Of a stretch of 64,000 nucleotides of DNA, positions 1 through 60,335 are shown in pieces. The DNA comes from Cyanidioschyzon merolae (lineage: Eukaryota), in the NCBI GenBank assembly GCA_000091205.1, contig AP006501.2; one strand, written 5' to 3'. The notes beneath the pieces are model-generated. The model was not told where the DNA came from, searched no databases, and saw only the letters and a list, made by a program, of their open reading frames with translations. The position numbers were made by a program, and so were the translations under genes. Positions within the stretch are counted from its first letter, which is position 1. Each line of letters starts with the position of its first letter.

Positions 1-1444
1 CGACATAGCGTCGAAGCGGACCCAGCGCACCCGTTTGAAAGAGGTAGATCAGGACCGCCAACCCAATAAGGAGCAACAGGCGATCTCGTCCACCATCCTG
101 GCTAAGGAGAATCACCATAAACGTCAGTTTGGAGACCAGTGCCCAGTCAAGTGCCGGCATCCGAACACGAATGGCAATCATCCGAACGGGTATCGCTCCA
201 GCTGCACCAGCACGGAGCATATTTCCCGGAAGCTGGTGACGTTCAGCAGCTTCCAAAGCGCTCCTCGATATCGATGAGCGTGCCGCAGCGCCCGTCCCAT
301 GGCCGCTGGAGGCAGAAAGACCACTCGATTGGCTGTGATTCGCCAGCAGATACGACGGCGGTACCCCGCCTGCCTCATGCGTCGCGTAATACTCTGTTAA
401 GCACCGGTTGTACTCCTCGTATGCTCGAAGCATTCGCGCATATGCCTGTACTAGCTGGAGTGTCTGCTCATCAAGCCGCACATGCAGGCTCGCCTGCTCC
501 GCGTTCGTCGACGCCCTTGCAGCGTCGAGCCTATGCTGCAGATTCCGCGAGTGCTCAGTCCCGTTGTGCTGTTCTTCAGAAGGTTGTCTGGTCTCCTGCT
601 CAGCAGTGGCGTTCGACAGAGCGCGCCACGCTGTCGCTGGAGTTGTTGCGGAGTCTGCATCGAGCGCGCGTTGCTGCTGCGACTGAGGTTGCGACTGACC
701 CTCGTCCAAGGCCCAAGCTTCGTCGAAGAGCGCCGCATCCGAGGATCCCTCCTGTCTACCAGCAGCTACAGCGGAAAGCGCCGGTGAGCGCTCCGCATCA
801 GAAACAGAACCCAGGCGTTCGCGACTAGCGTCGCTAAATGTTAAGACTTCACCAGAGTTTGTGCTTGGCGCAGAATTCACCTCGATGCTAGCAAGGCTCT
901 CCAGCTGTTGCCCGCTAACGACTGCATCCCGCGTTATCCCTGTGGAGCGCTCGGCTGACGTTAGCCCGCGCTCACTAGTCACCACGAGATGAAATACCGC
1001 GAACAGCGGGGGCGAGGCGCTTTCACCGGTCTCCGTACCGTTGCTCCCTACGCAAGAAGATGCTCGGGCGTCGTCGCCAAGCTCCCCGACAACTGCTCGT
1101 GACATACCGACTATTTCTCGAATACACTCTCCGTCCTGCAATAGACGACCTCCGTAAACGAGTCTCTGCTGCTCTGGTGCAGGATGAAAAGGATGCTCCA
1201 GGTGCACTCGACGCTTCAGGTCCCCGACAGTTGACTCGGGCTCAACCGACAATACATAGGAGCGCCCCGCTGCGTCAGATACGATGTTGGGTGTCTTGAG
1301 CAGAACGCGAACTGCACCAGCAGTGCCGTGTGATGCGCTCCGAGCAGTCGAGGAGCACGCTCCGGGTCCCGGTGAGCCTGGTGGTCGCTCCTGATCAGCG
1401 TCGCTCGACTCGGGAGTCCCGCGGGGTACGTCCATCTGGTTCAT
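1..1444 (-). CDS. Partial CDS running off the left window edge: membrane protein with a ubiquitin-like domain, Herp/Usa1-like
   Basis: I translated the minus strand by hand. The frame opens after a stop at plus 1499-1501, has ATGs at minus 1444 and 1435, and stays open to position 1 (at least 480 aa). Residues ~40-115 read ...RVLLKTPNIVSDAAGRSYVLSVEPESTVGDLKRRVHLEHPFHPAPEQQRLVYGGRLLQDGECIREI, which fits a ubiquitin-like fold (QRLI/VYxGxxLxD). A coiled-coil-like middle follows, then hydrophobic segments (LTFMVILLS...LLLLIGLAVLIYLF) near the window edge. It is absent from the ORF track because it is partial. Confidence 0.5.
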   Translation of the reverse strand, partial: MNQMDVPRGTPESSDADQERPPGSPGPGACSSTARSASHGTAGAVRVLLKTPNIVSDAAGRSYVLSVEPESTVGDLKRRVHLEHPFHPAPEQQRLVYGGRLLQDGECIREIVGMSRAVVGELGDDARASSCVGSNGTETGESASPPLFAVFHLVVTSERGLTSAERSTGITRDAVVSGQQLESLASIEVNSAPSTNSGEVLTFSDASRERLGSVSDAERSPALSAVAAGRQEGSSDAALFDEAWALDEGQSQPQSQQQRALDADSATTPATAWRALSNATAEQETRQPSEEQHNGTEHSRNLQHRLDAARASTNAEQASLHVRLDEQTLQLVQAYARMLRAYEEYNRCLTEYYATHEAGGVPPSYLLANHSQSSGLSASSGHGTGAAARSSISRSALEAAERHQLPGNMLRAGAAGAIPVRMIAIRVRMPALDWALVSKLTFMVILLSQDGGRDRLLLLIGLAVLIYLFQTGALGPLRRYV

Positions 1445-2167
1445 CTTATTTGTCAGCGCACAGACGTCGCGCTGTTGCAACTGAAGCTGGTACAGCGGCT
1501 ACTGCTTCCAGGTTCCAGATGCGGTCGTCGCCTCAACTCGGGGGCCAGTGTCTTCTGCCGAAGAGACCTCCCCTTGAACCTGCAGTGCCCTGTTCACAGA
1601 ACTTCTTCACGCAAAGCAGTGTCCAGCAAGTGCCCTTATATAGCCCCGAATGGAAACCTTGATCTGTTTCCGTTGTCGTGCTGGTTGTCCTAGGCGTACA
1701 CCCAGCAAGCTCGAGGCTTCGACTCCAACGCGTCGCAAACAACCGACCGCGTGAGGTGCTGCGGCGTCGATACGCCTGCGAACCGGCTCGCAGTTAGCCT
1801 AGAACGCTGCCGGTTTTCCTGCAGCAGAAACGAGCAGCGCAGGCGCCTTGTAGCGACCAGAGCAGTGGGCATCATCTCTGGATGCCTATTGAAGCTAACG
1901 CTGAGCAAGATTTCAAGACCAGACCAATAGCAGCGTCACTTGGACGGAACGCTTTCGAGTGGTCGTCCAGAGCGGCAGCGCGTGTCCGTACCTGCAGCCG
2001 TTTGCCACAACTGCGTCTGTGCGATCCTCTTTTATACCCAATATAAGGAAGAGGAAAGCGTTTGTGAACGTGGCACCTGCGACCCGTGAGAGCGGTGTGA
2101 GCGCTAAGTTGCAACCCGGTAGCGCTGAGCGTTTTGGAGGCGCACACACGCTTTCCGTTACGGCCTC

Positions 2168-3358
2168 ATGGCTGAGCAGCAGGCGTCCTCTGGATCACAC
2201 AGCGATGAAACCTGGACTCTGGTGGAGCGACGGAAACCTTCCCGACAAGCGGGGACGCGTTTCCCGTTGCTCGCTGGGCACCTGCGCACGAGGCTCGACG
2301 TGGCCTGTGCTGATCAAGAACTCGAGAGCTTCTGGCACTTGTTTACTGCCAAACTGGACCAAGTCACGCAGTTTTCCCGCAAAACCTTTCAAAATTTCAC
2401 GTGCTATAACTTTGAACGCTTTATTGGACTGGGCATCGGGGCCTTTACCAGCGACTGGCGAGCTCAGTGGCAGTTGGCTTGGCTGGTAGCTCTCCAGCGG
2501 TACCTGAAACAGTACACACGAACGGCTGGAGTCGCGAGCGACTGGGTGCTCGTTGAGCCGCAGCTGACAAGTCTGGAAGTAACCTTGGCGAAGAGGCTGG
2601 GGTTTAGGGTTTTTCGTGCCGATCCCAATGCACCCGTGCGTTGTCGTCATTGTCGTCGATCACAGAGCGACGCTGCAGCGCAAGCTGGTGCGCATACCGA
2701 CAGGGTTCCCGCGTCGTCTCGACTCGGTCGATCACAACTACCGCACAGCACCCGTTTCCATGATTATATTAGACCGGACGCGGTGCGAAGACAAAGCAAA
2801 GATTCAGGGAGCGGCTACACCCTGCTATTCATGCCACACTGTGGAATCGGTCTCATAGAACTCGTTTTACAACTTTACTGGGACCAGGATGCACTGAGTC
2901 GACTTCATTTTGTGAGTAGCGATCTTGTCGAGCTGATAACGAGCCACGAACAGCGCTCTGTCGCATTAGCCGCCGAGCGAACGTCATCTGTGCACGGGCG
3001 TGGAAACGCGCTGGTTTCGTGCTCCGACCGGCAACTGCCGCTCGCGAAGGACGCCTCAGGGTCTACGTGCGAAACCAAGGCAGCAGTAGCATCGGCAACT
3101 CAGGAATTACCTTCACTCACTGAACCTTGCTGTATGCTCGCGCTTGCTTCCCAGCACTGTATCCGATGGATCGCTCCAGTAGACCCTGAAGGCTTTAGAA
3201 ATTCCAATGTGCGGCAGGCCGCGTTTCATGGACTCGGGTGGCAATGTATTGAGGATCCGACGACGGCTGCACTGGAAGCGATCCGGCCTGGTGACTGCTC
3301 CACCGATCGTGCGGATCCAGCACAACTCGCGGCCGCGATGCATTACATACCACTTTAG
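2168..3358 (+). CDS. SRR1: SRR1-domain protein
   Basis: True ATG at 2168. It contains ...FIGLGIGAF...QLAWLVAL... and later ...LLFMPHCGIGL...LQLYW, matching the conserved GLG and MPHC blocks of the SRR1 family. Single exon, 396 aa. Confidence 0.55.
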   Translation: MAEQQASSGSHSDETWTLVERRKPSRQAGTRFPLLAGHLRTRLDVACADQELESFWHLFTAKLDQVTQFSRKTFQNFTCYNFERFIGLGIGAFTSDWRAQWQLAWLVALQRYLKQYTRTAGVASDWVLVEPQLTSLEVTLAKRLGFRVFRADPNAPVRCRHCRRSQSDAAAQAGAHTDRVPASSRLGRSQLPHSTRFHDYIRPDAVRRQSKDSGSGYTLLFMPHCGIGLIELVLQLYWDQDALSRLHFVSSDLVELITSHEQRSVALAAERTSSVHGRGNALVSCSDRQLPLAKDASGSTCETKAAVASATQELPSLTEPCCMLALASQHCIRWIAPVDPEGFRNSNVRQAAFHGLGWQCIEDPTTAALEAIRPGDCSTDRADPAQLAAAMHYIPL

Positions 3359-6126
3359 GTGCGAAACGATAGATCAATGGAATTCGTTGTCCATGAAAAG
3401 TACGCTGTCGTGCGTGCGGGGTATACGGCGGCGCTGGAGCGTCGTATGATGCGACACGGTCAACTCGATAGGCAGCATCATTGGGCCGCTTCTCTGGCCG
3501 CTTTACGGAAGCTTTGCTCATGACGCATCGTTTTCGTATGAATGGTGAAAGGAATATGCGGTTATTTCCTTACGATGACGACTCGAGATTTTCAATGAGT
3601 CCACAATCGTGCATGAAAGAATGTCATGTTGGTGCTGGAATGGAGGCTATGACCGGTGCTGTCGGCGTATCGCGGGTTGATAGACTTGGGAATCCGCAAG
3701 AACACCACCGCTGCTGCACAGGGATATTCAGAATGAATGAGATGTAGATGATGGAGGATGTGCTTGTCTCCATGCAGTCATGCATGCGAATTTCATGCGT
3801 GACATGGGAAACAAGGCACGCTTTACTCGGCACGCTCCTGATACCAAGCACATATTTCAGCGCCTCTTCTGGGATACACTGCATGATGAGGACTTGAACC
3901 TTGAGGGATTCCCTTTACCAGCTCGCAGTGAGTCTACATGCAGTTTCGTAGAGCAATCGAATCCGAAACATGACCCAGGGGCGTCTCCCACGTACCTGGA
4001 ATGCCCACGCCCCTGTATCCCATGCTCCATACCAAATTCAGTGTTCTTTCGTGAGCGCGTGCCTGAGACCCGATTATTCTGGTGAAACACGCGCGTTCTC
4101 AAGGGCATTGCACGGTCCATTGACCTTCGAACAATGCTGTCTGGGTCGAGCGACACACGCAGTCTCTAGTGGGGTACGATCTTCACTGCCACCCGAGTGT
4201 TATCCGAACAACGCGTTGGCATCCTCTCGTGCTTATAGTCTTGTGACTCAGTTTCGTTTCGACTCCGCTGCGGCGTACAGCAGGAGACCGAAAGCACGAT
4301 ACCATGTACTGTATAGATTTTAGAAGCATTGCCTGTAGGATATATTGTTTACAAAGCAGCAGAAGGAAGACTGCATTTTCGCTTCAGACAAGTCATACCA
4401 TACTACTCCGATGGTTGAGTAACACTGAAAGAGACATGTAGATGCGTTCCGAGCCAAAAACCGATATTCTCAAGGAATGGTTGCGGTCAATAGTAGAAAG
4501 CGACCCATCGATTACCTTACGTAAACCAAAAGCGACAGCAGTAGCCGCAAGGGGCGTCACTGTTTCTCACCAGCTTATTCTTGCGGTCCTGAAAACACCG
4601 GTATGCGGTCGCAAAAAAACAGCCTTGCTTCACGCATAGTCATCTCGCACCGATATCGAAGCTACGACAGCGTTTCTGGAAAGTCACAATCGGTATGAAG
4701 CACAAGGACGTCGGCTTGTCCTTTTCCAGCCGATGCGACGTCATTCGGACGAAACGGTCGGAGCGTAGAGGGGTATTCGGCGAGCAGGGACTCAGTAGTA
4801 CGTCCGTCCGAACTCGAAGAGAACTGGGATATCAGCATTTGTTCTAGCTGCAGTGGATGCATTTGGCGGCCTCGGTTTGGCTCGAAGATACAGAAACGGA
4901 AGTCGGGGATCCTCGCAAGCTCGGTGCCGCCTGGTGCTGGAGAAAGACGAAAAATCCTCTTCTTCCCGATCATTTAGCGAAGAAGAGCAAGTAACGAAGA
5001 AGAAACAGATGAGGGGAGATGATCGAGAAGAGGTTTTCGCTCGAAAGGACGGTAACGAGACCTTCATGGCACAGCGGGCGTGAATTCAAGGAATCTTGGC
5101 GTTAATGAGTTCAACCAGAGCCAATCAACGCAGCCATCAACATAAGACGATGTCTGGTGCTGCAGACAAGACCCACAGAGCTGACGAGAGCCAGTTTCGT
5201 GTGACAGCCTATCAGCCACGAAAGCTTCTAGGACAAACTAAAACCGATGGCAGACGGTCAGTTAAAAAATGGCTGGGAGGCGTCTGCGAGTGGATAGGTA
5301 TATTTCCCGTCCATGATCATAGGACATTTTGTGATTCTCTGATCGCATATCTTGACAGAGTAGTGCAATAGTCGGCTGGAGTGAGGCGGCTCCTTTTCGC
5401 TCGAGAACCTGCTATGTGCCGGGAGCCGGTTACACTTCAATGATGTAGACACATGCAGCCTGGTACGTTGGGCTGCTTTCTCGAGCCGCGAAATACCCAG
5501 GCACGTTCTGCTGCTTTCGAGCACTGGCGGCAGCGCGGAGAAGCAATCGACATCGCGAAACTGCATTGCGTAGCGGGCCCGAGATGCAAACTGGTCATCT
5601 TCATGGACGACGCTTGTGCGCGATCGGCTCGTCTTGGCATCGAGTCCGTTTACGGCAGACGCTCTTCCGCAGATTTCTGGTCTGGCCTTCATGGCGGGCG
5701 CGCGGTCAAGCCAGTGCTCTGCTTTCGTCTATCAGTGATGCTGCATGAGGCCTGAACGCAGTCACGATTTCGACGGAACTATTTTAATCGCTCAGATGGA
5801 GTCGTGTTCCACATCTCAACCGGGCAGTACATTTGCTTCATCTTGTCAGGTTTGAAACCAGATCACCAACGCGTCTGGTGAAACAGGTCACTAGAGCGTT
5901 CCCCAGCTGTCCCGGATGCAGGCTTGGCGCCACGTGAAAAGCATCCAGCACCAAAGGCTCTGCGATGAGCGGCAAGCACCTGATGATTGCGCATGTGGCT
6001 CGTGATTCCCATAGATACCGATCTGAGGCGTTCGTTGCCCCGCCGGTACGATGCCAGTCGTCAGTGCCGACCATCACATCTCCATGTACCTCGTTGGGGT
6101 CAGGATTCGCAATCTTTGGGATATGC

Positions 6127-48894: not shown

Positions 48895-50695
48895 GCCTCG
48901 CCGTCAGCTGGTGTGCGTAGCCGTTGCCGCTTAGGCCCCAACGGTTCGCCCGTGCGTTGTCCACAAAAGGTCCCCAGTCACCGCCGTTTCCAAGCTGGCC
49001 GTTCTGCCAACGATTTCGCTCTGTGCCGACATCATCCATCTTTGACGAAGGTGAAGCGATACTCCACGCTGCGCAATACAACTGCTCGCCCCGTCAGCCG
49101 CAACCTTCGGGAGACACGCACGCACACCCCCCCAACTGACGCCTACACACGCACGCTCGAACGGAATCGAGATCATCATGCGTGCCGGTGTGCGCAGCAG
49201 CAGCCGGCGCGCGATGCCTTGTCCGAATCACCCAGGCGTCAGCGACGCTTCCGCCTTCGCCGCCTGCTGATCAGCGCAAATGGCGCTTGGCAATGTGGCG
49301 AGGGGGCGGCAGCGGCGCTGTTTTTGCGCCCCTGTGCAGTAGCGCGCTCCTGCCTGGGCGCAACCGCTCAACGGATCGCGGTGTACGCCAGCGCGTGCAC
49401 GATGATACGGAGCGCGCTTCTCGCCTTTCAACTCAATGACGTTCCACATCAAGGTACGTGTCGTCAAATGCTTTTCGCAGTTTGCAGCAGGTGTGTTCGA
49501 AGTATGTTCAACTAAAGCAATAAAAATTCAAGTGGGGGTTATGGGCATGGTAGTTAGGGGTTTCGGAGAGCTCTCCATGCCACGTCCGATGAAAACAAAT
49601 CAAAAAAATTTTCTTCTTGCTGATCATCGGGCGAACGAAAGCAAGTGATGAAGAAGCAGAAGACGAGGAGATATGGGCGAGAAAAGGAGTTTGCCCGACG
49701 AGACAATGCCGAGGTTGTATTGATACAGAGGGCGTGAGTAAGAGGAATGCTTGCATTGTTGACTTCCGCCAGCGGCAATGTACGCGAGGAGCTTATGAAA
49801 CGAGAGTTCAATGCTGGTATCAGTATAAGATGAATTGTGTTGCTGGAGACGGAACCCGAGGCGCTGACGCGAGCCGCCTTTGTAAGGTAACCTCTCAGCG
49901 TCGAAGTGTGCCTGGATAAACTGTAGCGGATACCAGGCAGTCGGTCAAAAAAGGCTGGGAGGCGTCGAAAAGTGGGTGAATAGATATACCCCCATGGTCG
50001 TGACACATTGTTCGTTGTGCTCACCACGTATGTAGATGCTGGTGCGAGCACCGTATGCTATGGCAACAGGGTAATGCTTTCCTATGAGAACGGGCCCTGG
50101 GTCCTTTGGCTCCGATGCCGTCTCGTGCATGCCCGTATGCATCGCATCACGCTCGGCAGCGTGATCGACGAGCCCGTTTGGAGCATGTCACACGTGTGTC
50201 TCGGTGCGGTATAATTTCGGAACTCTCGAATCACCGGTAGAGTCTTTATTGTACTAGAGCTCGCTTTAGCGGCACGACAGACTCGAATGCGTGACGCGTT
50301 GGCGGCCGTCAGAGCGCCACTAAGGGCTGTGGTGGCTCGGCTATCTTGCCCCGGCACATGGACATATTATTCCGTTTCCCCATCATAATCACCAGAGCCG
50401 CATGTTCCATGTCCATCCATACTGCCTGCTCAGATTGCTGCTCAACCGACTACGCTTGTATGGCATACGCATTAGGCCATCGAAGCCAATAGGCGCTTGA
50501 GACTAGAACGCAACAGCTGCAGCCATGCATAGTTGCCTCCTCGTGCGGCTGGCGCCCGCTAATGTTTGCGTTTGCGCAGTCTCATACAAGCGCGGCCTTC
50601 GTCACGTCAACAAAATGAGTCTTATTCGGCACCAGGTGGCGTAGTCGAGCGGTCTCCATCTGAGCATGCGATCGCCACGCACACCTGCAACGACC

Positions 50696-51320: not shown

Positions 51321-52787
51321 ATGAGAGACGCATTGTACCTCGCTTTCGTAGCGCCTTTTCTACAAAAACAGTCGACGCGTAGGTTTACCGGCTTGAAGGT
51401 CAACGGTGCGTCGTCCGCGAATCAAATGTGGACCTGGAGCCGAACCACGGGACTAGAAGGACCTTCCTGCAGAGGCCAGCAAGCCTTGCCGTTTCAAATG
51501 ACAACCGCGCCTGAGACGTCCAAGGTTTCCACGCGCAGTGTTCCGGGTTGGACTGTGAGCGGGTCTACAGACGACGTCATCGAGTTACTCGTTCCTGAGG
51601 CAATGCGCCCTGAACTCGAGGCCGAAGCACGAACGTTGCCGCGCGTTGTGCTGACCGAGGAGACCGACCTGCAGTGGCTTCACGTACTGAGCGAGGGCTG
51701 GGCATCGCCCCTGCGCGGCTATATGCGCGAAGAGGAGTATCTGCAGTGCCTTCATTTCAATTGCTTGCGTTCTACGAGCGGAACTCTATACAACCAGTCT
51801 GTGGCAATTGTGCTCACGGTAGACGATGCCCAGCGACAGGCCATTGAAGCCAGCGGGCGGAACGCTATTTGCATTACATGGCACGAACGGCCTGAGGAGC
51901 CCCTTGCTATTCTCCGGAACCCAGAGTTCTACGTTCACAACAAGGAGGAGCGCTGCGCGCGACAACTCGGGACGACGCACCCCAAACATCCCTATGCAGA
52001 AGTCATCTATCGTTCAGGAAACTGGCTCGTAGGCGGTGACTTGCAAGTCCTCAAGCGCATCAAGTACAACGATGGTCTGGATGCATACCGCTTGACTCCG
52101 AAAGAACTTCGTCGTGAGTTCCACAAACGCGGTGCCGACGCTGTTTTTGTGTTTCAGCTGCGGAACCCGATCCATAATGGACACGCGCTGCTCATGACGA
52201 GCTGCCGTGAAGACCTCCTGCGTCGTGGCTACCGCAACCCGATTCTACTGGTGCACCAGATTGGTGGTCGCGTCAAGGCCGACGACGTACCGCTTCGAGA
52301 ACGCATCCTACAGAACCAGGAAGTGATCGCCGAGGGCATTCTTGATCCAGAATCCACCATGCTCGGGATTTTCCCTAGTCCTATGATGTACGCAGGCCCA
52401 ACCGAGGTGCAATGGCACGCCAAAGCTCGCATGAATGCAGGTTGCCAGTTTTACATCGTTGGTCGGGACCCAGCTGGGGTCAAGCACCCTGATGGCGATC
52501 GCGACCTCTACGATCCATGGCACGGGAAGAAAGTGCTCCTGAGCGCGCTCGGGCTCGAACGACTCGAGATCCTCCCGTTTCGAGTGGCGGCCTACGACAA
52601 AAAGATCGGGAAAATGGCGTTTTTCGATCCATCGAGAGCAGACGACTTTCTGTTCATCTCGGGTACTAAAATGCGGGCGTTTGCCGCACGCGGGGAATCA
52701 CCACCTGACGGATTCATGGGTGTGCGTGCGTGGAAGGTGCTCGAAAACTATTACGCACAAAAACGAGAAGCGCAGGGGTCCTCTTGA
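51321..52787 (+). CDS. ATP sulfurylase (sulfate adenylyltransferase), plant/plastid type
   Basis: QLRNPIHNGHALLM (the conserved RNP(V/I)HNGH motif), ...YIVGRDPAG..., and PUA-like N-domain blocks. 488 aa with a ~60-aa N-terminal leader. True ATG at 51321. No APS-kinase-like C-domain, which a fungal type would have. Confidence 0.9.
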   Translation: MRDALYLAFVAPFLQKQSTRRFTGLKVNGASSANQMWTWSRTTGLEGPSCRGQQALPFQMTTAPETSKVSTRSVPGWTVSGSTDDVIELLVPEAMRPELEAEARTLPRVVLTEETDLQWLHVLSEGWASPLRGYMREEEYLQCLHFNCLRSTSGTLYNQSVAIVLTVDDAQRQAIEASGRNAICITWHERPEEPLAILRNPEFYVHNKEERCARQLGTTHPKHPYAEVIYRSGNWLVGGDLQVLKRIKYNDGLDAYRLTPKELRREFHKRGADAVFVFQLRNPIHNGHALLMTSCREDLLRRGYRNPILLVHQIGGRVKADDVPLRERILQNQEVIAEGILDPESTMLGIFPSPMMYAGPTEVQWHAKARMNAGCQFYIVGRDPAGVKHPDGDRDLYDPWHGKKVLLSALGLERLEILPFRVAAYDKKIGKMAFFDPSRADDFLFISGTKMRAFAARGESPPDGFMGVRAWKVLENYYAQKREAQGSS

Positions 52788-52913
52788 CAAATCAAAAGCC
52801 CTTAGAGACCTCTTGTTAGGCACTTGGCAACGCCTTTTCGAACCAACAGTTAGTATCCGCAGCTCGGGGAACGTTCATGCACGCTGTGGGTCGGATATGA
52901 GCAACGAAATAGC

Positions 52914-52975
52914 GCTGCTTCTGCTGCGGGTGCTTCTGCTGCGGGTGCTTCTGCTGCGGGTGCTTCTGCTGCTCC
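52914..52975 (+). repeat. 15-bp microsatellite (ctgctgcgggtgctt) x ~4, just 3' of the ATP sulfurylase stop
   Basis: Perfect units at 52921, 52936 and 52951, with partial flanking units. Confidence 0.85.
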
Positions 52976-55325
52976 ATCGTAGCCTTGCTAAGCGTCTGTG
53001 CATATGCACTCAGGGGAAAAAATTCGGCTGGCAACGTGCTCCCTCAAACGTGAATCTGCCGTCCAGAGCTTTGCTGGTCGCCTAACAGCATTAGGCAAGA
53101 ATGTTGCTTTATTTGAGAGCATATCGATGGTGAGAACCCTCGACTCGACGATAGGCTCTTCAAGATGAGGTCGTCCAGCGCAACATAGCGCCATAGCGCG
53201 CACGCCAGCGTTCGTACCCGATCAGGAGTACCTCGAAAGGCCCTGGCGCTCCCCGAAAAGAATGACCGAATAACGCGTACTAGCGCTGGTTGGCCGTATC
53301 GATCGCACGGGAGTGAACCGTTTGCGTCGTAAGCCCCTGGTGCATCGCAGTCGCGAGCCTGACGGGCACAAGTCCCTTGCGAACACCGGTGGCAGATAGT
53401 CGAGGCACCAGCTCCGTCGACGAAGGCGCTAGCAGCGAAGCAGGACCAGGGGTTTCCTGGTTAAGTTCATCGGTTCTGGACCATGAAAAAGCAAAGCAGC
53501 AGGGTAAACTGGCTATCGCGGAATCCCGCCATACTTTACTCAGTGACGGCTAGGCTACCCAACGCAACATCTTTCGCCAAGACGCGGTCTCACAACGCGG
53601 TGCGCTCTGCAAGCACATCCTGCAGGTCTCGCTCCGAGTCCGTGCTTAGACTGTTATTGCACCCAAACTTTTCAGTGACTCTATCCTTAGGTGCTGAATT
53701 TACGGCAAGCATCCCCGTGACGCAGTGCGTTGCCCCCGACCGCGACACAGGCGCGGTGGCTGGCCAGTGAACAGTCAGCTAGTACCAAAACTTCGCTGAG
53801 TACTCGACATCACCCGCGTTAGAACGAAATGGTTCGGGTCGACTCGGCGAACTCACGTGTAAACAGTAGAATGTGCATTCCTTCCTACTGTCATCAACAC
53901 CAGGCCTTGCGTACGTTTTCTCGTATTGCTTTCTTTTCCTCTCTCTTTCATTCCCGTCTTTAGATACGCCCGTTGGCCCGTCTCTCAAGCTCTGTTGTCA
54001 GGAGTCATAGGATGTTCGTGACAGCTTCCAACTGCCATTTTCATAGCTTGTGGCTGTTGTCGATGCATTGCATGCCATGCTGTACATAGCCATCTATGCT
54101 TCACTTGCAATTTTTACCTTATTGCGGACAGTGTCGGTGCTTCCCTCGATGCGGTTACACTCGACAGCTTTCAGATGCACCGATATATCCACAAAATCAT
54201 CTGTTCTGATTACCGCCCTGTGCCGCATAAGCGTTTGCTTCAGCGCTCTCTTCATAGCCTTGATGGCTGCAGAAGTTTTTTTCAATACCCTCCTCCGTTC
54301 CCGCGCCCAATACCGTAGCGTTATATCACGAAAGCGTTCCGGGCGATCACTCGTCGAGTGTTCTGTTCGCTCTGCAGGCACACGTGCGTTGTTCCATTTG
54401 AGGAAGGATTTGTGGAACGCGATGTTGATCATGATGAAATAAGTACTGTATTGGAAATCCAGAGTGGAGATCAAGGTGAGTAACTTCGATCCGTCTATGC
54501 TCGCTTCTTGTAGAGTGCTGACGAACGCTTCACAGGAGGCAATCGCTCGGATGACTTGAGTCCGAACCCAAGACCATTCGCCATGCAAACATAAAAGACG
54601 TGTGCCTCCAGAGCATATCCGGTAGAAATTATCACGCTTCTGTCAAATAATGCTTCCACAATGGTCACAAGGAGAGGAGGATTTGTGTTTAGACCGGACT
54701 CGATAATTTGATGCGAAAGATTCAGTGCTCTTCCTGTATGACATTAAGAAGAAATCTTCAAGGAACGAGGAGCAGTCTTTTTCGCATCAATCCAGCGGCG
54801 CGAATTCCAGCGCCACGAATTGCCTCAGAAACATCGAGAACATGGCTAGAGTGTGATTTGAGCAAACTCCTCGTAATGAATGATGAAGCTTGGAGGCTTG
54901 TTCGTATCAGTTGGACGATCAAATCGGTTACACTACGAATCCTTGTTCAAATACATCGCGAGTTATTTGGATCCAGGTGGCGTAATGATGTCAACGGCAA
55001 AGAGTCAAAGAAGCGACGCCCAAAAGGTGACCCAGAATCCCCAAGCTACATATAAGTGCTATAGTCCGCATTGCAGCAAGTTGAATCTCGAGACTCTACA
55101 CCTAAAAAGAGTTCGGCAAATGTCGAAATGCAAGAGCAGATCGAGTACTTCAGTGTTCCATTTCGACCCGACACGGGTGTGGAATCCATCACGCACAGCG
55201 AATGCCGCAAACCTACTCCACGCTGCACATGTAGACCGCTACCACCAACCTCAGTACGAGGCCTACGTGCGCCCTCTTTCAACGGCATATCCATAATCCG
55301 CTCAGGACGGTTTCATCCGCGCTTT

Positions 55326-56912
55326 CTACACGGCCTGCTCGTTTATCTCACCAAGATGATCGATGCAACTGATTCGCAGCGTCGACGTTGGTTTCTGGAT
55401 GCGGCAACGTCGGCGTATGTCGTCCAGAGCGATCTGAAAATATTCCACCGGACGAGCGGAATCTAGAAACTCATCGTGATCGGCTACATCTCCGTCAACA
55501 TAGTACCCGATATGACCAATGCCATTTGGTGCAAATATGTGCACGAATCCATTGGCGTCTAGTGTTATGCGCGGTGAACGGCCCACTGCATGTAGTGGAT
55601 GACTCGGGCGTTCACTGGCGGAGGCGCCGTTAGTAACAGGTAGCATACGAGTGACCGAAGCGTGTGGTGCATTCGCAACCTGATAAGGAACACGCGCATC
55701 ATGCTCTAGTCGCTCGGGTGATGGTAGTGGTGATGCGGCTGGTTGCGCAGTGAACGAGGCCCAGTCCGGCTCTATCTGCTCTACAACAGCAAGTGCACCA
55801 ACAAAGTGCCGATGGAAATGCAAGCGGCAAGCAGCACTCCTATCCCAGTGCGGTTCGTGTGCCTCCCGCTCTGGATCTGGGTCTTGCACCGTGAAAAGAC
55901 GGTAGAAATAGTCAAAGCCGCGGGCCATGATACCACCACCGCGGCACGGATGCGGAAGCGACAGACAGTGACCCAGTTCATGCAGCATCGCGCCAATTGT
56001 TGTGGAGGCCAAGGCCCAGCGTTCACCGCGACCGGCGCTATCATCGAAGAAGTTAATTGAGTCTACGCGTCTCCGATCACTAAAGCGCTTTGGCACTTCT
56101 GAGAGCGTCTGTGGCCATGCGTACATACCACTGGAGCCAAAGAGCGCTAACGTGCCTCCACCAAGTGCTGTGTGTCCATACACACGGCCTGTGCTCGCAT
56201 CTTTTGACGTGAAAGACATGACAGCCACGTCGATACACTGCTGGCGGTTAGATATGTTCGAGAGCTCCTCAGCAATCATACCCCAGAGCGCGTCACCCGA
56301 AAGTGCATGCAGCTCGGCTCGTGTCCGCGACAGACGCCTTACATGAACAGGTACATCATAGGCGCAGTGAATCTCTTCGATATTCCCTGGCAACGGAGTC
56401 GCACACGCAGCGCTCATACGTTCAATGCAAAAGCTCAAATGACCGAGGCCTTGCTCATGAAGCAACTCTGCGGCAGCTGTTTGCATGAGTCGTAACGCTA
56501 ACGCGAAACGGCGCACGGCGCTCGCAAGCATACAGTCTTCGTCGGGCGGAGCTTGGAAACGCACCTCCACGGCGTCTCGCGGCACGACGTAGACTGCTCG
56601 GACTACATAGTCCCAGGGGACGTCCAGATAGTGAACGCGAAACTGCAGTTTCGCTGGCCCGCTCAGCGGACCCGCAGCGACAAGGTTTACCCCTGGTTGC
56701 AGCCAGACTAACGCTCGAAACCTACCATCGCAGTTGCGCACAGGCCAAGGCGTTCGTTGCTGTTCAGCAACCAAACTACCTGGTTGAGCATTTGCCAAGT
56801 AAACGACGACGCACGTGAGGTGCTCATTGAGCGGCACCTGACCGCATATCAGAAGCAACGGAAACGTTACAGCTTCGTCTGGTCGGAGGTTCTCAACCCG
56901 CCATCGCACCAT
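55326..56912 (-). CDS. Zinc metallopeptidase (HEXXH), putative peptidase family resembling yeast YIL108W
   Basis: True ATG at 56912, 528 aa. GAMLHELGHCLSLPHPCRGGGIMARGFDYFYR contains an HExxH zinc-binding motif with a downstream GL.H-type third-ligand context. Confidence 0.6.
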   Translation of the reverse strand: MVRWRVENLRPDEAVTFPLLLICGQVPLNEHLTCVVVYLANAQPGSLVAEQQRTPWPVRNCDGRFRALVWLQPGVNLVAAGPLSGPAKLQFRVHYLDVPWDYVVRAVYVVPRDAVEVRFQAPPDEDCMLASAVRRFALALRLMQTAAAELLHEQGLGHLSFCIERMSAACATPLPGNIEEIHCAYDVPVHVRRLSRTRAELHALSGDALWGMIAEELSNISNRQQCIDVAVMSFTSKDASTGRVYGHTALGGGTLALFGSSGMYAWPQTLSEVPKRFSDRRRVDSINFFDDSAGRGERWALASTTIGAMLHELGHCLSLPHPCRGGGIMARGFDYFYRLFTVQDPDPEREAHEPHWDRSAACRLHFHRHFVGALAVVEQIEPDWASFTAQPAASPLPSPERLEHDARVPYQVANAPHASVTRMLPVTNGASASERPSHPLHAVGRSPRITLDANGFVHIFAPNGIGHIGYYVDGDVADHDEFLDSARPVEYFQIALDDIRRRCRIQKPTSTLRISCIDHLGEINEQAV

Positions 56913-56920
56913 TCACGCCG

Positions 56921-56943
56921 TTCGAAAGTCGAACGACGCGAAC
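56921..56943 (-). other. Strong RNA hairpin in the 59-nt spacer between the Fanzor stop and the metallopeptidase ATG
   Basis: Minus-strand cgtcgttcga-CUU-tcgaacggcg forms a 10-bp stem (one G-U) with a 3-nt loop. Its core cgttcgaaagtcgaacg (plus 56919-56935) is a perfect 7-bp palindrome. No U-run follows it. Confidence 0.4.
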
Positions 56944-56971
56944 GGTGTACAGTAGTGGCGGCAACCGCGCC

Positions 56972-59185
56972 CTAGACGAAACGTATACAACTGACGTTCA
57001 GACGCCTTCCAGCCTTTTTGGACCGGCCACCCACTACTGCTTCCAACTTTTTCGCATATAGTTCGACTTTGAGGGGTTGCCTAACAACATTCTCTCGTGT
57101 CAACTCCGGAGGTCTCTTCTCCAGCACCGCGCATTTCCTTAGATTGATGGCGGCATTAAAATCTCGATTCACGAATTCCATCCGTTTCTTGCCATCACTG
57201 GCTGTATTCACTAATGCGAGTAATCCTCGCACTTTTGCCCTCCTTTCCATTTGCTCCCCCGTCAGCGGCCCATACTTTTTTATATCCTCAGGGCACCTCT
57301 GGCACTTTTCCATCTCGACCCTCTGAAGTGTACACCCCAGTTCAGGGTGTATATAGGACGTCCGGAACTCATCTATAGGTATCGTAACGAAACGCCGTGC
57401 ACACTCCTTGTATATTCTTGTCGTTGGAGCAGGCGTAGTTCCTTTTTGGGTCTTCCAACACCCTGCCCCATACGCTACGAAGAGCCTCTGACCTTCATCC
57501 TCCTTCAAGGCGCTCAACTGATTGGAAAAAATTCGCGAACGCCCGCTGCCTCCCACCGTATACATTCATACGCACTCGAATCCACCGAGGCTTGGTATAC
57601 TCCTCCCACAGCGCATCCCAATGAGCAACACGAACTTCCATCAATTTCAGAAAAGCCTGAAAGTCCGCATTCCGGCTCGTCACCTCACTCATAGCTTCCA
57701 GGCGATCCTTCATTCCTTCGTTCCATGTCTCAATTTTCTTCCTTGCATTCATTATACCGGATTCCCGATAATATCTTGCTCTCGAGAACCCCAAAGTTCG
57801 CATGTCTTTCTGACGTAAGCTACCGTCAATGACATCTTCCGCACGCTTGGGTGCTGCGATGGTAATGATATTCGTATTCCCAGGGTCCGCGCCAACGACA
57901 AAGTCGTTATCCTCTACCTGCTGCGTCGCTGGATCCTCCTTCTCCTTTTCTCCATGCTTCGTCACGGGCTCAGCCGAAGGCAGGACTGGACGATCTGTCT
58001 TGAACCGCCCATAGTGTACACACATGGCTACTCTATCGGATTCCATCATCCTCTTGAATACCTTTTGTTTACTCATTTTGAGACGTTTGAAATCTAAGAT
58101 ATCCTTCCAGTACGTCTCCCGGTTTTCGCCGGTGAAGTCCTCCCTGCTAGCATCAAACTCGGGATTGATATCCCTCATGATGCCGTTATGGACGCCGAAG
58201 TCGATACTCACAAAATGTGACTTGATGTTGCACAACGGAACGCCGTTGAAGCGCTTTCCCGTTAGGAAAGCCTTCCGTCTCTCCCACTCTTCATTTTTTT
58301 CCCCACTCAGCTTCATCTCTGCCTTGCGTTCGAGCTCTCGGTCCAGAAACACAAAATAGCGCAGGATGAGGCCATGATATCTTTCCTTACCGTTTTTCAA
58401 CTCTGATATCTTTTCTGCTAGATTCGCCAGCCCCAAGTCTGCGCGGCGCTCTTGAATAGCCGCACGGATTACAGAAGCTTCATTCGTGCTCTCGTTTGAC
58501 GCCTTCTTGTCGACGAATTCGATCTCATCTTCACGCTTGCGATCTTTCGTGATGCCGTCGATAATCGCCCATTTTCCATTGCGAGACAGACCCGGGTAGA
58601 GTGCAGCCACGCGCGTATCATGAAACGTTCGAGGTTCATGTTCAAATGGTTCTTCAGATTCGTGAGGTACTTCATAGCCCCATAGTCGTAAATATCCCGG
58701 TCACCCTTGTATCGAGTACCCTCGAAGCAGAATTTCGCGAAGTTTTCGTGGAGGACGTGCACCCGCTCATTTTCCCTCCATGTTTCCTCTGTACCAAGCA
58801 TCAGCTGACGAACAAAGGTCTTATCGAAAAACTCGTCCGGAATCTCGACCATTTCCACGTGCGTCACGTCGCGATACATCTCCCTCACCAAATGCATCAG
58901 TCCTGATGACGCCTTGACAATACTCTTGGAGTACGAATCGACACGGTTCCTAATGGCCTCTCGCAACTTTTGTTTGTGAGGATCCTTGTTATGTTTAAGA
59001 AGACAGGTTTTCACCACCATCTCGTCGTACTGTCTTCTTTCTCGCAGCCTTGGACGTGCGGCCTCCTGCCTTTGCTTCTTCTGCCCTTCCTGTTCTTCTT
59101 CGCCCCGCCATGTTTTTCGTGTTTCTCCACCAACCGGCGACACAGGGCCCCAGGATCCTCCGCTTCCACTTCCATAACTTTCCAT
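56972..59185 (-). CDS. Fanzor (eukaryotic TnpB-like RNA-guided RuvC endonuclease), interrupted: three ORF segments joined by a 46-nt intron and one unresolved frameshift/intron
   Basis: Segment A (59185 down to ~58700, starting [10 protein letters not shown]... at a true ATG) carries a basic stretch [17 protein letters not shown] (NLS-like). Segment B (~58700-57564) carries RuvC-I ...[19 protein letters not shown] (Asp codon at 57887..57885) and the TnpB/Fanzor bridge region ...[15 protein letters not shown]. Segment C (57517-56972) carries ...[20 protein letters not shown]..., RuvC-II ...[19 protein letters not shown]..., Cys-x-Cys spacing (EKCQRC), and RuvC-III ...[17 protein letters not shown] (RD.NAA.N, the TnpB hallmark). 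Total ~720 aa, consistent with Fanzor1-class length. Confidence 0.75.
57518..57563 (-). other. 46-nt spliceosomal mini-intron inside the Fanzor gene
   Basis: Minus-strand sequence: aat|GTATACGGTGGGAGGCAGCGGGCGTTCGCGAATTTTTTCCAATCAG|ttg. It has a GTATAC donor, a pyrimidine tract and a CAG acceptor. Removing it joins ...RVRMN exactly in frame to [21 protein letters not shown]..., which restores the expected TnpB/Fanzor domain order. Without splicing, a stop (57568..57566) separates the frames. Confidence 0.6.
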
Positions 59186-60335
59186 TTTTAATTTTTTATA
59201 ACGCTCTCTGAACGCTTCTGCTCCAAACAGCGAAAAATCACTTGAATACACTTGCTTGAGTGTTGAAACACAATTGAACTGAATAATATACGTTGCTACG
59301 ACTTTAATGAAAATAAAATTTGCCGGGTAGAACAACACGCTACAGATTAGGATTCCATTCCTCTTCAACGGCGACATGCGCGTCGTGTCTCGTGACCACC
59401 TGATCCGGAGGTGCGCGTACCGACCGCGCTATACAAACGAAGAGCAAAAATGAATCATTAAATAGCGACGAGGTAACAATGTCTTTCTTCCTCTACGAGA
59501 AACGTAAAAAGGATGAAAGTTTTTCGTATTGTGGAAAAGTTTACCTTACAGGCGGAGGGTCCTGCGAGCTGGACGATTCTGCTAGGCTGGTGCTCGGTGT
59601 GCCTCTAAAGTGGCGGATGCTGTAGCGAGACCTGCGCAGCTCGTCCGCAACGCAGTTTTTTGGGACTAGGGGCAACAAAGCCGCGTCTGGGCGTCGCCCT
59701 GTTGCGGTGGTCTCCTAGTATATCGTTTCGCGCTGCCGCAGAAAGTACGTCCGTCAGCGCAGCTTGCAGACTCTCAGAACTATTATGTACTCCGAGACGA
59801 TGCCAGGTGCACCACGCCTCGAGCCGACGCCCTCAGTAGTATGGCAAAGCCGTTCTGTCTCCGTGCAGCATCCGCACCAGCGGTAGGCGCTACATCTGGT
59901 GCTGACGCCAGGCACTTGCTGCACGATAGAATGTACGAGACAACCTGTATATCCTCGAGGAAGTATAAGAAATGAAGCTTGAAGGTAAGTGCATCATAGT
60001 GGACGCTTTCCCGAAAGCAAATATCCATCCCGCAATCTGGGATCCATGGTCAATATAAACGTCTTGTCATCGAAATATGCCTCCCGACTGGGGGACGCGT
60101 CAGCGTCGCAGCGCATCGCTGCTGGCGACCCGACGGCTGGACACGTTTCCTCTGCGTATCTGTGCCGCACGGCGCTGCAGTGCCTGGAGACTCCAAGAAG
60201 TGGGGTGTGCGTTTTGTTTGACGGATCGGTAGTGGTTGGGTGTGCTACAGTTCCACGAAGCAAACCGTTCTGCTTAGTTGTGTTCTCTCTAGAGTTCTTT
60301 CCGCGGAGGCCTGAGACTTAGCGAATTTATTTGTT

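Follow-up and report, generated by a model that had tools for sequence, protein, structure and literature searches.

Where does a red-algal Fanzor transposon carry its guide RNA, and where on the chromosome does the template of that RNA give way to host DNA? The question is raised by a 64,000-nt stretch of the Cyanidioschyzon merolae genome (contig AP006501.2 of assembly GCA_000091205.1; hereafter the window, whose positions are used throughout), in which a gene of the Fanzor1 nuclease family, read on the minus strand, ends shortly before a gene encoding a PF12044 metallopeptidase. A first-pass annotation had proposed that the omega-RNA, as the guide RNA of these nucleases is called, lies at the Fanzor 3' end. 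The Fanzor protein family, the CMe-1A transposon and Fanzor guide RNAs in general are already known; the searchable literature holds no description of an RNA of the CMe-1A family, and Cyanidioschyzon is not mentioned in the supplementary files of Saito et al. Our analysis indicates that the scaffold of the CMe-1A omega-RNA is most likely encoded by a module at the right end of the element, which on the minus strand begins near the Fanzor stop codon (or perhaps already at ~57008) and ends at 56907, a reading to which we assign a probability of about 0.65.

The right end of a CMe-1A element

The element and its gene occupy the following positions:

56907 to 60072, minus strand: the whole CMe-1A-type Fanzor1 element, from alignment with the published consensus, with the right end extended by 9 nt
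56972 to 59185, minus strand: the Fanzor1 gene of this element, in three overlapping reading frames with two 1-nt indels

CMe-1A was described from C. merolae as a family of ~150 copies, ~3 kb long and ~80% identical to their consensus (Bao & Jurka 2013, PMC3627910, Additional file 2), with no inverted repeats and an undetermined target duplication (PMC3627910). That paper predates guide RNAs and gives no RNA or hairpin for the family (PMC3627910). Positions 1-3169 of the consensus align end to end with window positions 60072-56916 (86.2% identity, 16 gaps), and on the strength of this full-length match we assign the window element to CMe-1A. The two also agree in the size of the protein (735 aa for the frameshift-corrected product here, 734 aa as published), in having copies that are ~80% alike and in the absence of inverted repeats: when left and right ends of five full copies were aligned locally, in direct and inverted orientation, the scores were 11-16, and shuffles gave a mean of ~12 and a maximum of 18-22. 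A description of the ends as direct or imperfect inverted repeats was dropped on this result.

We compared the right end of the window copy with related copies on hot-spring metagenome contigs, in which one scan found 375 related stretches and from which 80 loci were fetched. Most blastn alignments between the window and these loci end at 56915-56917 and smaller groups end at 56905-56907; those of 3'-truncated copies end at 56927-56951. Per-column identity, computed from 46 non-redundant copies, ranges from 0.64 to 0.83 across 56971-56914 (0.72 in the GC stem described below, 0.83 in the linker region at 56956-56946 and 0.64-0.68 in the hairpin), falls to 0.40 at 56913-56907 and is 0.26-0.28 in the next 22 nt. 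The copies therefore stop being alike at 56916-56907, which marks the right end of the element. Homology running well into the metallopeptidase gene, which the first-pass annotation had named as a sign that the end lies elsewhere, does not occur.

Within this interval, the true right end is probably at 56907, 9 nt past the end of the published consensus. The motif GGTG is found within 18 nt of the apical stem in 24 of 42 independent flanks (TGGTG in 17 of the 42), where its pairing partner is a conserved CAC(C/U)G 5' of the stem. Its distance from the stem varies with the length of the 5' arm: copies whose 5' arm is 3 nt shorter (L001, L014) have a 3' arm that is 3 nt shorter, and copies with a longer 5' arm (L065, L073, L079) carry 7-10 nt more before GGTG. 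Whereas the published sequence ends in ...GAAAGGCG (window 56916), the end proposed here lies at least 9 nt further, at (U)GGUG, and would correct the right end of the published consensus. At the left end, the flanks share merely a loose [C/G]AT ahead of the T-rich start of the element.

A hairpin that closes the element

Direct reading of the minus strand places the stop codon of the Fanzor open reading frame (ORF), TAG, at 56974-56972 and the next ATG at 56912-56910, leaving the 59-nt spacer (56971-56913) that the first-pass annotation had given. Two structures had been described in this spacer, a hairpin with a 10-bp stem and a 3-nt loop and a second, weak GC stem. From the stop codon to the end of the element, the sequence contains:

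56957 to 56971, minus strand: a small GC stem-loop with a GGCG..CGCC base, ggcgcggttgccgcc, directly 3' of the stop codon
56948 to 56956, minus strand: an unpaired linker, ACUACUGUA, within the most conserved 3' untranslated stretch and nearly invariant in alignments A2 and A4
56907 to 56947, minus strand: a terminal 19-bp hairpin, CACCGUUCGCGUCGUUCGA-CUU-UCGAACGGCGUGAAUGGUG, at -30.8 kcal/mol, the proposed guide-adjacent stem-loop
56916 to 56938, minus strand: a 10-bp stem with a 3-nt loop, cgtcgttcga-ctt-tcgaacggcg, with one G·U pair, forming the apex of the longer hairpin

The 10-bp stem is present as described (56938-56916), but its outward pairing had been overlooked: the stem continues to 19 pairs (56947-56907), and the complete hairpin overlaps the ATG of the next ORF. 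The string of the GC stem is likewise present (56971-56957), but in the window it forms four to five pairs at most. Among copies, its four basal pairs are nearly invariant; only about half of the copies also form two inner pairs, which are absent from the window.

Folded as RNA, the 59-nt spacer reaches -26.1 kcal/mol (z = -2.97, equalled by 2 of 200 shuffles), and the 94 nt of 56990-56897 reach -44.0 kcal/mol (z = -4.12, equalled by none of 200 shuffles). The 23-nt stretch 56940-56918, which holds most of the short stem, is marginal (z = -1.9). Rfam 15 gave no match at the gathering score and two sub-threshold matches to microRNA precursors (18.5 and 15.7 bits, for cut-offs of 60 and 79). The minimum-energy fold of the window sequence also pairs CAGUAGUGG, in the ORF at ~57037, with CCACUACUG of the linker; we rejected this pairing, as the variants found in other copies mostly disrupt it (alignment A2).

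Conservation of the structure on the Fanzor strand

In 47 independent copies, the terminal segment folds at a mean of -18.4 kcal/mol in the sense orientation and -11.7 kcal/mol in antisense, the sense fold being the better one in 46 of the 47. Relative to dinucleotide shuffles of the same copies, the mean z is -3.07 for sense (below -2 in 29 of 47) and -1.21 for antisense, with sense ahead in 44 copies. G·U pairs account for 20% of the hairpin pairs. Together, the sense-strand preference and the G·U pairs place the structure on the strand transcribed together with Fanzor.

The apex of the hairpin occurs in two versions at one position, UCGUUCGA-CUU-UCGAACGG and ACGUUUUUC-UUUU-GAAAGGCGU, both of which pair. 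A covariance model built from 71 nt, from the stop to UGGUG, recovered the right ends of related loci and found one true match in the window, whose score of 95.9 bits is the highest of all; this hairpin is also the most perfect among the copies, with 19 of 19 pairs formed. At the three decayed Fanzor fragments elsewhere in the window, the same search detected no right-end module. In the alignment fitted to the model, 83.3% of cells pair, compared with 30-56% when the partners are slid, 16 of 25 pairs have changed on both sides (8.8 ± 1.7 in shuffles, with none of 500 reaching 16) and the covariation score is 0.153 (0.120 in shuffles), figures that are somewhat inflated toward the structure because the alignment was fitted to it. 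Conservation of the hairpin among copies, which the first-pass annotation had put forward as a check, is thus found, with compensatory changes.

A stable, sense-specific hairpin just 3' of a stop codon could also serve the Fanzor messenger RNA (mRNA) as a 3'-end stability or termination element with no guide function. A terminator and promoter scan returned nothing relevant: it gave no terminator-like site, as no run of U follows the stem. The host is a eukaryote. Such an element would, moreover, account neither for the exact coincidence of the structure's end with the transposon boundary nor for the conservation of the linker and the terminal UGGUG. We consider this explanation very improbable.

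Alternatively, the hairpin might act as DNA, as an end signal for a single-strand transposition enzyme (compare Helitrons, IS200/IS605 and Replitrons), with no part in guiding. It sits exactly at the terminus of the element, as right-end hairpins typically do in HUH-type transposons (PMC10288648, PMC3627910); CMe-1A has no inverted repeats and no established target duplication (PMC3627910), and our own comparison of its ends gave nothing better than shuffles; and the strand bias is compatible with this explanation too, since single-strand DNA tolerates G·T pairs. Nevertheless, neither the loci nor their surroundings showed a recombinase of the HUH, tyrosine or serine type, the sole transposases near relatives are of the DDE_3 (Tc1/mariner) type, which acts on double-strand ends, and no equally conserved left-end hairpin was apparent when the alignment was inspected by eye. 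We therefore regard a purely DNA-level role as unlikely. An end signal and a guide RNA are, in any case, not exclusive, as the same DNA serves TnpB and Fanzor elements both as their end and as the template of their guide RNA.

The predicted omega-RNA and its boundaries

The module shares with known Fanzor1 RNAs its position, strand and size, the pattern of a conserved part followed by a variable one, and the guide-adjacent stem-loop, and on these grounds we take it to be the omega-RNA template. It is located 3' of the nuclease gene, is read from the same strand and stops at the right end of the element, as mapped with the 80 loci and the published consensus. At the DNA level, a conserved scaffold is followed by a variable sequence derived from the flank, which differs in 42 of 42 independent flanks. 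The proposal of an omega-RNA at the Fanzor 3' end is supported in that position, strand and architecture agree with those of experimentally defined Fanzor1 omega-RNAs (PMC10432273; 10.1101/2023.08.09.552727), but its boundaries have to be redrawn. Two further features bear on them:

56972 to 57008, minus strand: possible 5' part of the scaffold, comprising the stop codon and the last ~12 codons of Fanzor; boundary uncertain
56890 to 56906, minus strand: host DNA that would template the predicted guide, CGAUGGCGGGUUGAGAA, corresponding to metallopeptidase codons 3-8; its length is set by analogy with SpuFz1 and the SfAV Fanzor1

For a scaffold beginning at ~57060, as first suggested, we found no support; the sole hints place its start between ~57008 and the stop codon. 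Through most of the Fanzor ORF, identity is lower at third codon positions than at the first two (~0.70 vs 0.87). In the last 15 codons this pattern is gone, with identities of 0.76, 0.79 and 0.74 at positions 1, 2 and 3. Several otherwise intact Fanzor proteins stop short of the C-terminal tail, and in an ORF-less relic of the module the homology starts at ~57008. The 3' end of the scaffold, previously put at ~56920, most likely lies at 56907 instead, with the guide template running from 56906 to ~56890. Position 56907 falls within the ATG-GTG of the metallopeptidase gene, near whose start the first-pass annotation had expected the guide-adjacent end.

In this layout, the scaffold would consist of the short GC stem, the unpaired ACUACUGUA linker and the long terminal hairpin ending in UGGUG, and the guide would be an RNA copy of the ~15-20 nt of host DNA that follow (56906 to ~56890). 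On the model of SpuFz1 and TnpB, a Fanzor protein would bind the scaffold, and the guide would direct it to cut a matching insertion-free site beside a short motif, allowing the element to persist. Transcription of the module, its binding by the protein, the length of the guide and the cleavage are all steps that we infer from such analogies.

Several observations weigh against an omega-RNA at this place or complicate it, the structure-fitted alignment behind the covariation counts being one of them. RNAalifold, applied to a plain MAFFT alignment of 44 right ends, yielded a near-zero consensus of -0.64 kcal/mol, a failure that we attribute to a 3-column offset between the pairing registers of the two apex variants. 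Pairing reaches 82% in the GC stem and in a possible 7-bp stem near the end of the ORF (GGCGUCU/AGACGUC), with covariation not above that of shuffles. The 5' limit of the scaffold is uncertain, falling somewhere from ~57008 to 56971; at the other end, the published consensus stops at 56916, 9 nt short of 56907, and the last 2-9 nt are missing from ~40% of copies. A terminal hairpin on one strand would suit a single-strand DNA transposase as well, in an element without inverted repeats (PMC3627910). Finally, the Fanzor ORF of the window copy has two frameshifts.

The nuclease gene of the window copy

The frameshift-corrected translation carries the RuvC motifs GADPGNT, IDEFRTS and NRDFNAA, the third within NRDFNAAIN. 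They fit the pattern by which we recognised Fanzor1, namely RuvC D...E...D (DPG; DE.[RK]TS; NRD..A) in which a Zn-ribbon region separates the last two motifs, and they align with the corresponding residues of SpuFz1 in a profile match. That profile, built from 17 family members, gave 8GKH (SpuFz1) as its sole PDB match (E = 2.7e-7, profile positions 274-657), which ties the family to an experimentally characterised Fanzor1. The single sequence on its own gave no match, and the three Fanzor ORF fragments gave none in Pfam.

Two indels interrupt the ORF of the window copy: a 1-nt deletion near 58611, where the window reads CGCG-CGTG and other copies read CGCGCCGTG, and a 1-nt insertion near 57524, where the window reads TTTTTTCC and other copies read TTTTTT-C. 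Neither is present in 14 other copies, and the middle 362 codons, between the two, are out of frame. The copy is thus a pseudogene unless the indels are assembly errors in short homopolymer or simple runs, and it could be either. With two frameshifts, any RNA made from this locus could act only with the protein of another, intact copy of the genome; intact relatives are known, for example one of 752 aa (P0001).

If the copy is dead, its module could be an inert relic that inherited a perfect stem and retains no function as RNA or DNA. The frameshifts are unique to the window copy, three other decayed Fanzor fragments share the window with it, and the copies of the family are old, at ~80% identity (PMC3627910). 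We nonetheless find this account unlikely. The relic would be the copy with the most perfect hairpin of all (all 19 pairs and the top score of 95.9 bits), the insertion has been retained with an intact hairpin in a second sample whose peptidase is 99% identical, and the frameshifts on which the argument draws could themselves be assembly errors.

Directly before the first RuvC aspartate, a ~75-nt unit (57887-57966, minus strand) codes for ~25 aa (...KEA.PATQ.V.DNDLVV). The window has a single unit, and many relatives have 2-4 tandem copies of it (L001, L002, L003, L028 and others), so that the nucleases differ in length.

The flanking metallopeptidase gene

Beyond the module, the boundary of the element coincides with the start of a host gene:

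56910 to 56912, minus strand: the ATG that starts the PF12044 metallopeptidase ORF (55326-56912), within the 3' arm of the terminal hairpin

Since the ATG at 56912 directly follows an in-frame TGA and no further Met occurs until about residue 128, it is the only start available for a full-length peptidase. The protein begins MVRWRVENL here and MFEQRGWRVENL or MIEHNGWRIENL in orthologues, which have MFEQRGW or MIEHNGW where the window has MV/RW, and joining the two flanks of the element restores no in-frame start. The first peptidase codons seem to have been displaced by the element, with a new ATG coming from its terminal AUGGUG; the transposon end overlaps the start codon of this conserved host gene and probably supplies it.

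An exact-sequence look-up of the peptidase returned no match. Its closest named red-algal orthologue, from Cyanidiococcus yangmingshanensis, is 67% identical, and the order of a 134-aa gene, the peptidase, an ATP sulfurylase and a RING protein is common to that species, which lacks the element at this place. The second sample, with its 99%-identical peptidase, has the same insertion and the same arrangement. We sought an insertion-free site and recovered none: the 99%-identical contig carries the insertion, and the Cyanidiococcus orthologue has diverged too far for use as a reference. The spacer between the peptidase and ATP sulfurylase genes (52784-55326) is ~2.5 kb long here and ~0.9 kb in C. 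yangmingshanensis (L083).

With a host gene starting at the AUGGUG of the element, inside a -30 kcal/mol hairpin, one can also imagine that the module has been co-opted and that binding or processing by Fanzor controls translation of the peptidase. The predicted guide would then be the peptidase's own first codons, the peptidase mRNA would have to start inside the Fanzor element or read through it, and the element would be in regulatory use, not mere selfish maintenance. We rate this as distinctly improbable, and retain the omega-RNA of the transposon itself as the preferred reading of the module.

Other Fanzor remnants and related modules

Further traces of Fanzor elements are found in the window. 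A decayed transposase fragment of the DDE_3 (Tc1/mariner) type at 4304-4867 (plus strand) is followed directly by the decayed remains of a Fanzor C-terminus at 5127-5267 (plus strand), and the same order, transposase and then Fanzor, recurs in distant Fanzor1 relatives (L084-L088) and at one more locus (L070). Two more Fanzor relics, at 49728-49974 and 40283-40375 (both plus strand), have no recognisable right-end hairpin; the former matches positions 2840-3081 of the CMe-1A consensus at 68% identity and contains stop codons.

One such distant Fanzor1 relative (39% identity) is represented by four copies (L084-L087) that share ~183 nt after the stop codon (positions 3601-3783), a 3' module much longer than that of CMe-1A. 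Their similarity ceases immediately 3' of ...CATGAGTATA, an end flanked by TA as is typical of Tc1/mariner.

Right-end modules without an ORF occur at three loci (L068:3552-3623, L018:1266-1341, L063:1074-1129), ~30 nt upstream of a full Fanzor left end. They adjoin a fragment of a protochlorophyllide-reductase-like gene, and the three loci are ~80% alike throughout. We rejected their interpretation as 'ghost' elements of the SpuFz1 type, because the common host gene fragment points to one orthologous locus in three lineages, and we give them little weight.

The 5' ~640 bp of the element (window 60072-59430, minus strand) also occur without the Fanzor gene (for example L037:9427-9901 and L069:3857-4468), sometimes inverted, and are followed once by a DDE_3 gene (L037:10215-11089). 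Such detached copies fit the published relationship with TE-N2_CMe.

Comparison with known guide RNAs

Fanzor guide RNAs have been experimentally defined in few families, none of them from red algae in the searchable literature. The CMe-1A family is abundant, with ~150 copies reported in C. merolae and the 375 related stretches coming from a handful of hot-spring metagenomes. Its hosts grow under hot, acidic conditions, some copies have intact nuclease genes, and the scaffold is apparently compact, at ~65-100 nt with one dominant hairpin. These properties together make CMe-1A a candidate for a heat-tolerant eukaryotic RNA-guided nuclease.

The closest characterised counterpart is SpuFz1 of Spizellomyces punctatus (Saito et al. 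2023, PMC10432273; PDB 8GKH), which belongs to the same nuclease family. Its omega-RNA has a scaffold of ~75 nt after the stop codon, with a stem-loop beside the guide (PMC10432273); the guide measures 14-15 nt in SpuFz1 (PMC10432273) and ~20 nt in the SfAV Fanzor1 (10.1101/2023.08.09.552727). As in CMe-1A, the flank of the SpuFz1 element is variable from its end onward, the element codes for the nuclease alone and many copies are ~80% identical. SpuFz1 differs in its 30-nt inverted repeats and in a conserved CA before the left end, neither of which is detectable here. Its RNA, moreover, was demonstrated by experiment, whereas that of CMe-1A is predicted from DNA and would be dominated by one long hairpin.

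The omega-RNAs of TnpB (also called reRNAs, from IS200/IS605 and IS607 elements) offer a second comparison, together with that of GtFz1 from Guillardia. A TnpB scaffold shares at least ~100 nt with the ORF and contains a pseudoknot, neither of which is supported for CMe-1A, and CMe-1A lacks a TnpA partner. The general plan is nevertheless the same: the template is formed by the 3' end of the nuclease gene together with the right end of the element, and the guide is taken from the flank. Fanzor and TnpB RNAs have in common a conserved stem-loop beside the guide (10.1101/2023.08.09.552727), in the position held here by the terminal hairpin, and the possible overlap of the CMe-1A scaffold with the last codons of its gene has a precedent in GtFz1, whose RNA overlaps the last 17 codons of the ORF (PMC10432273 section 7).

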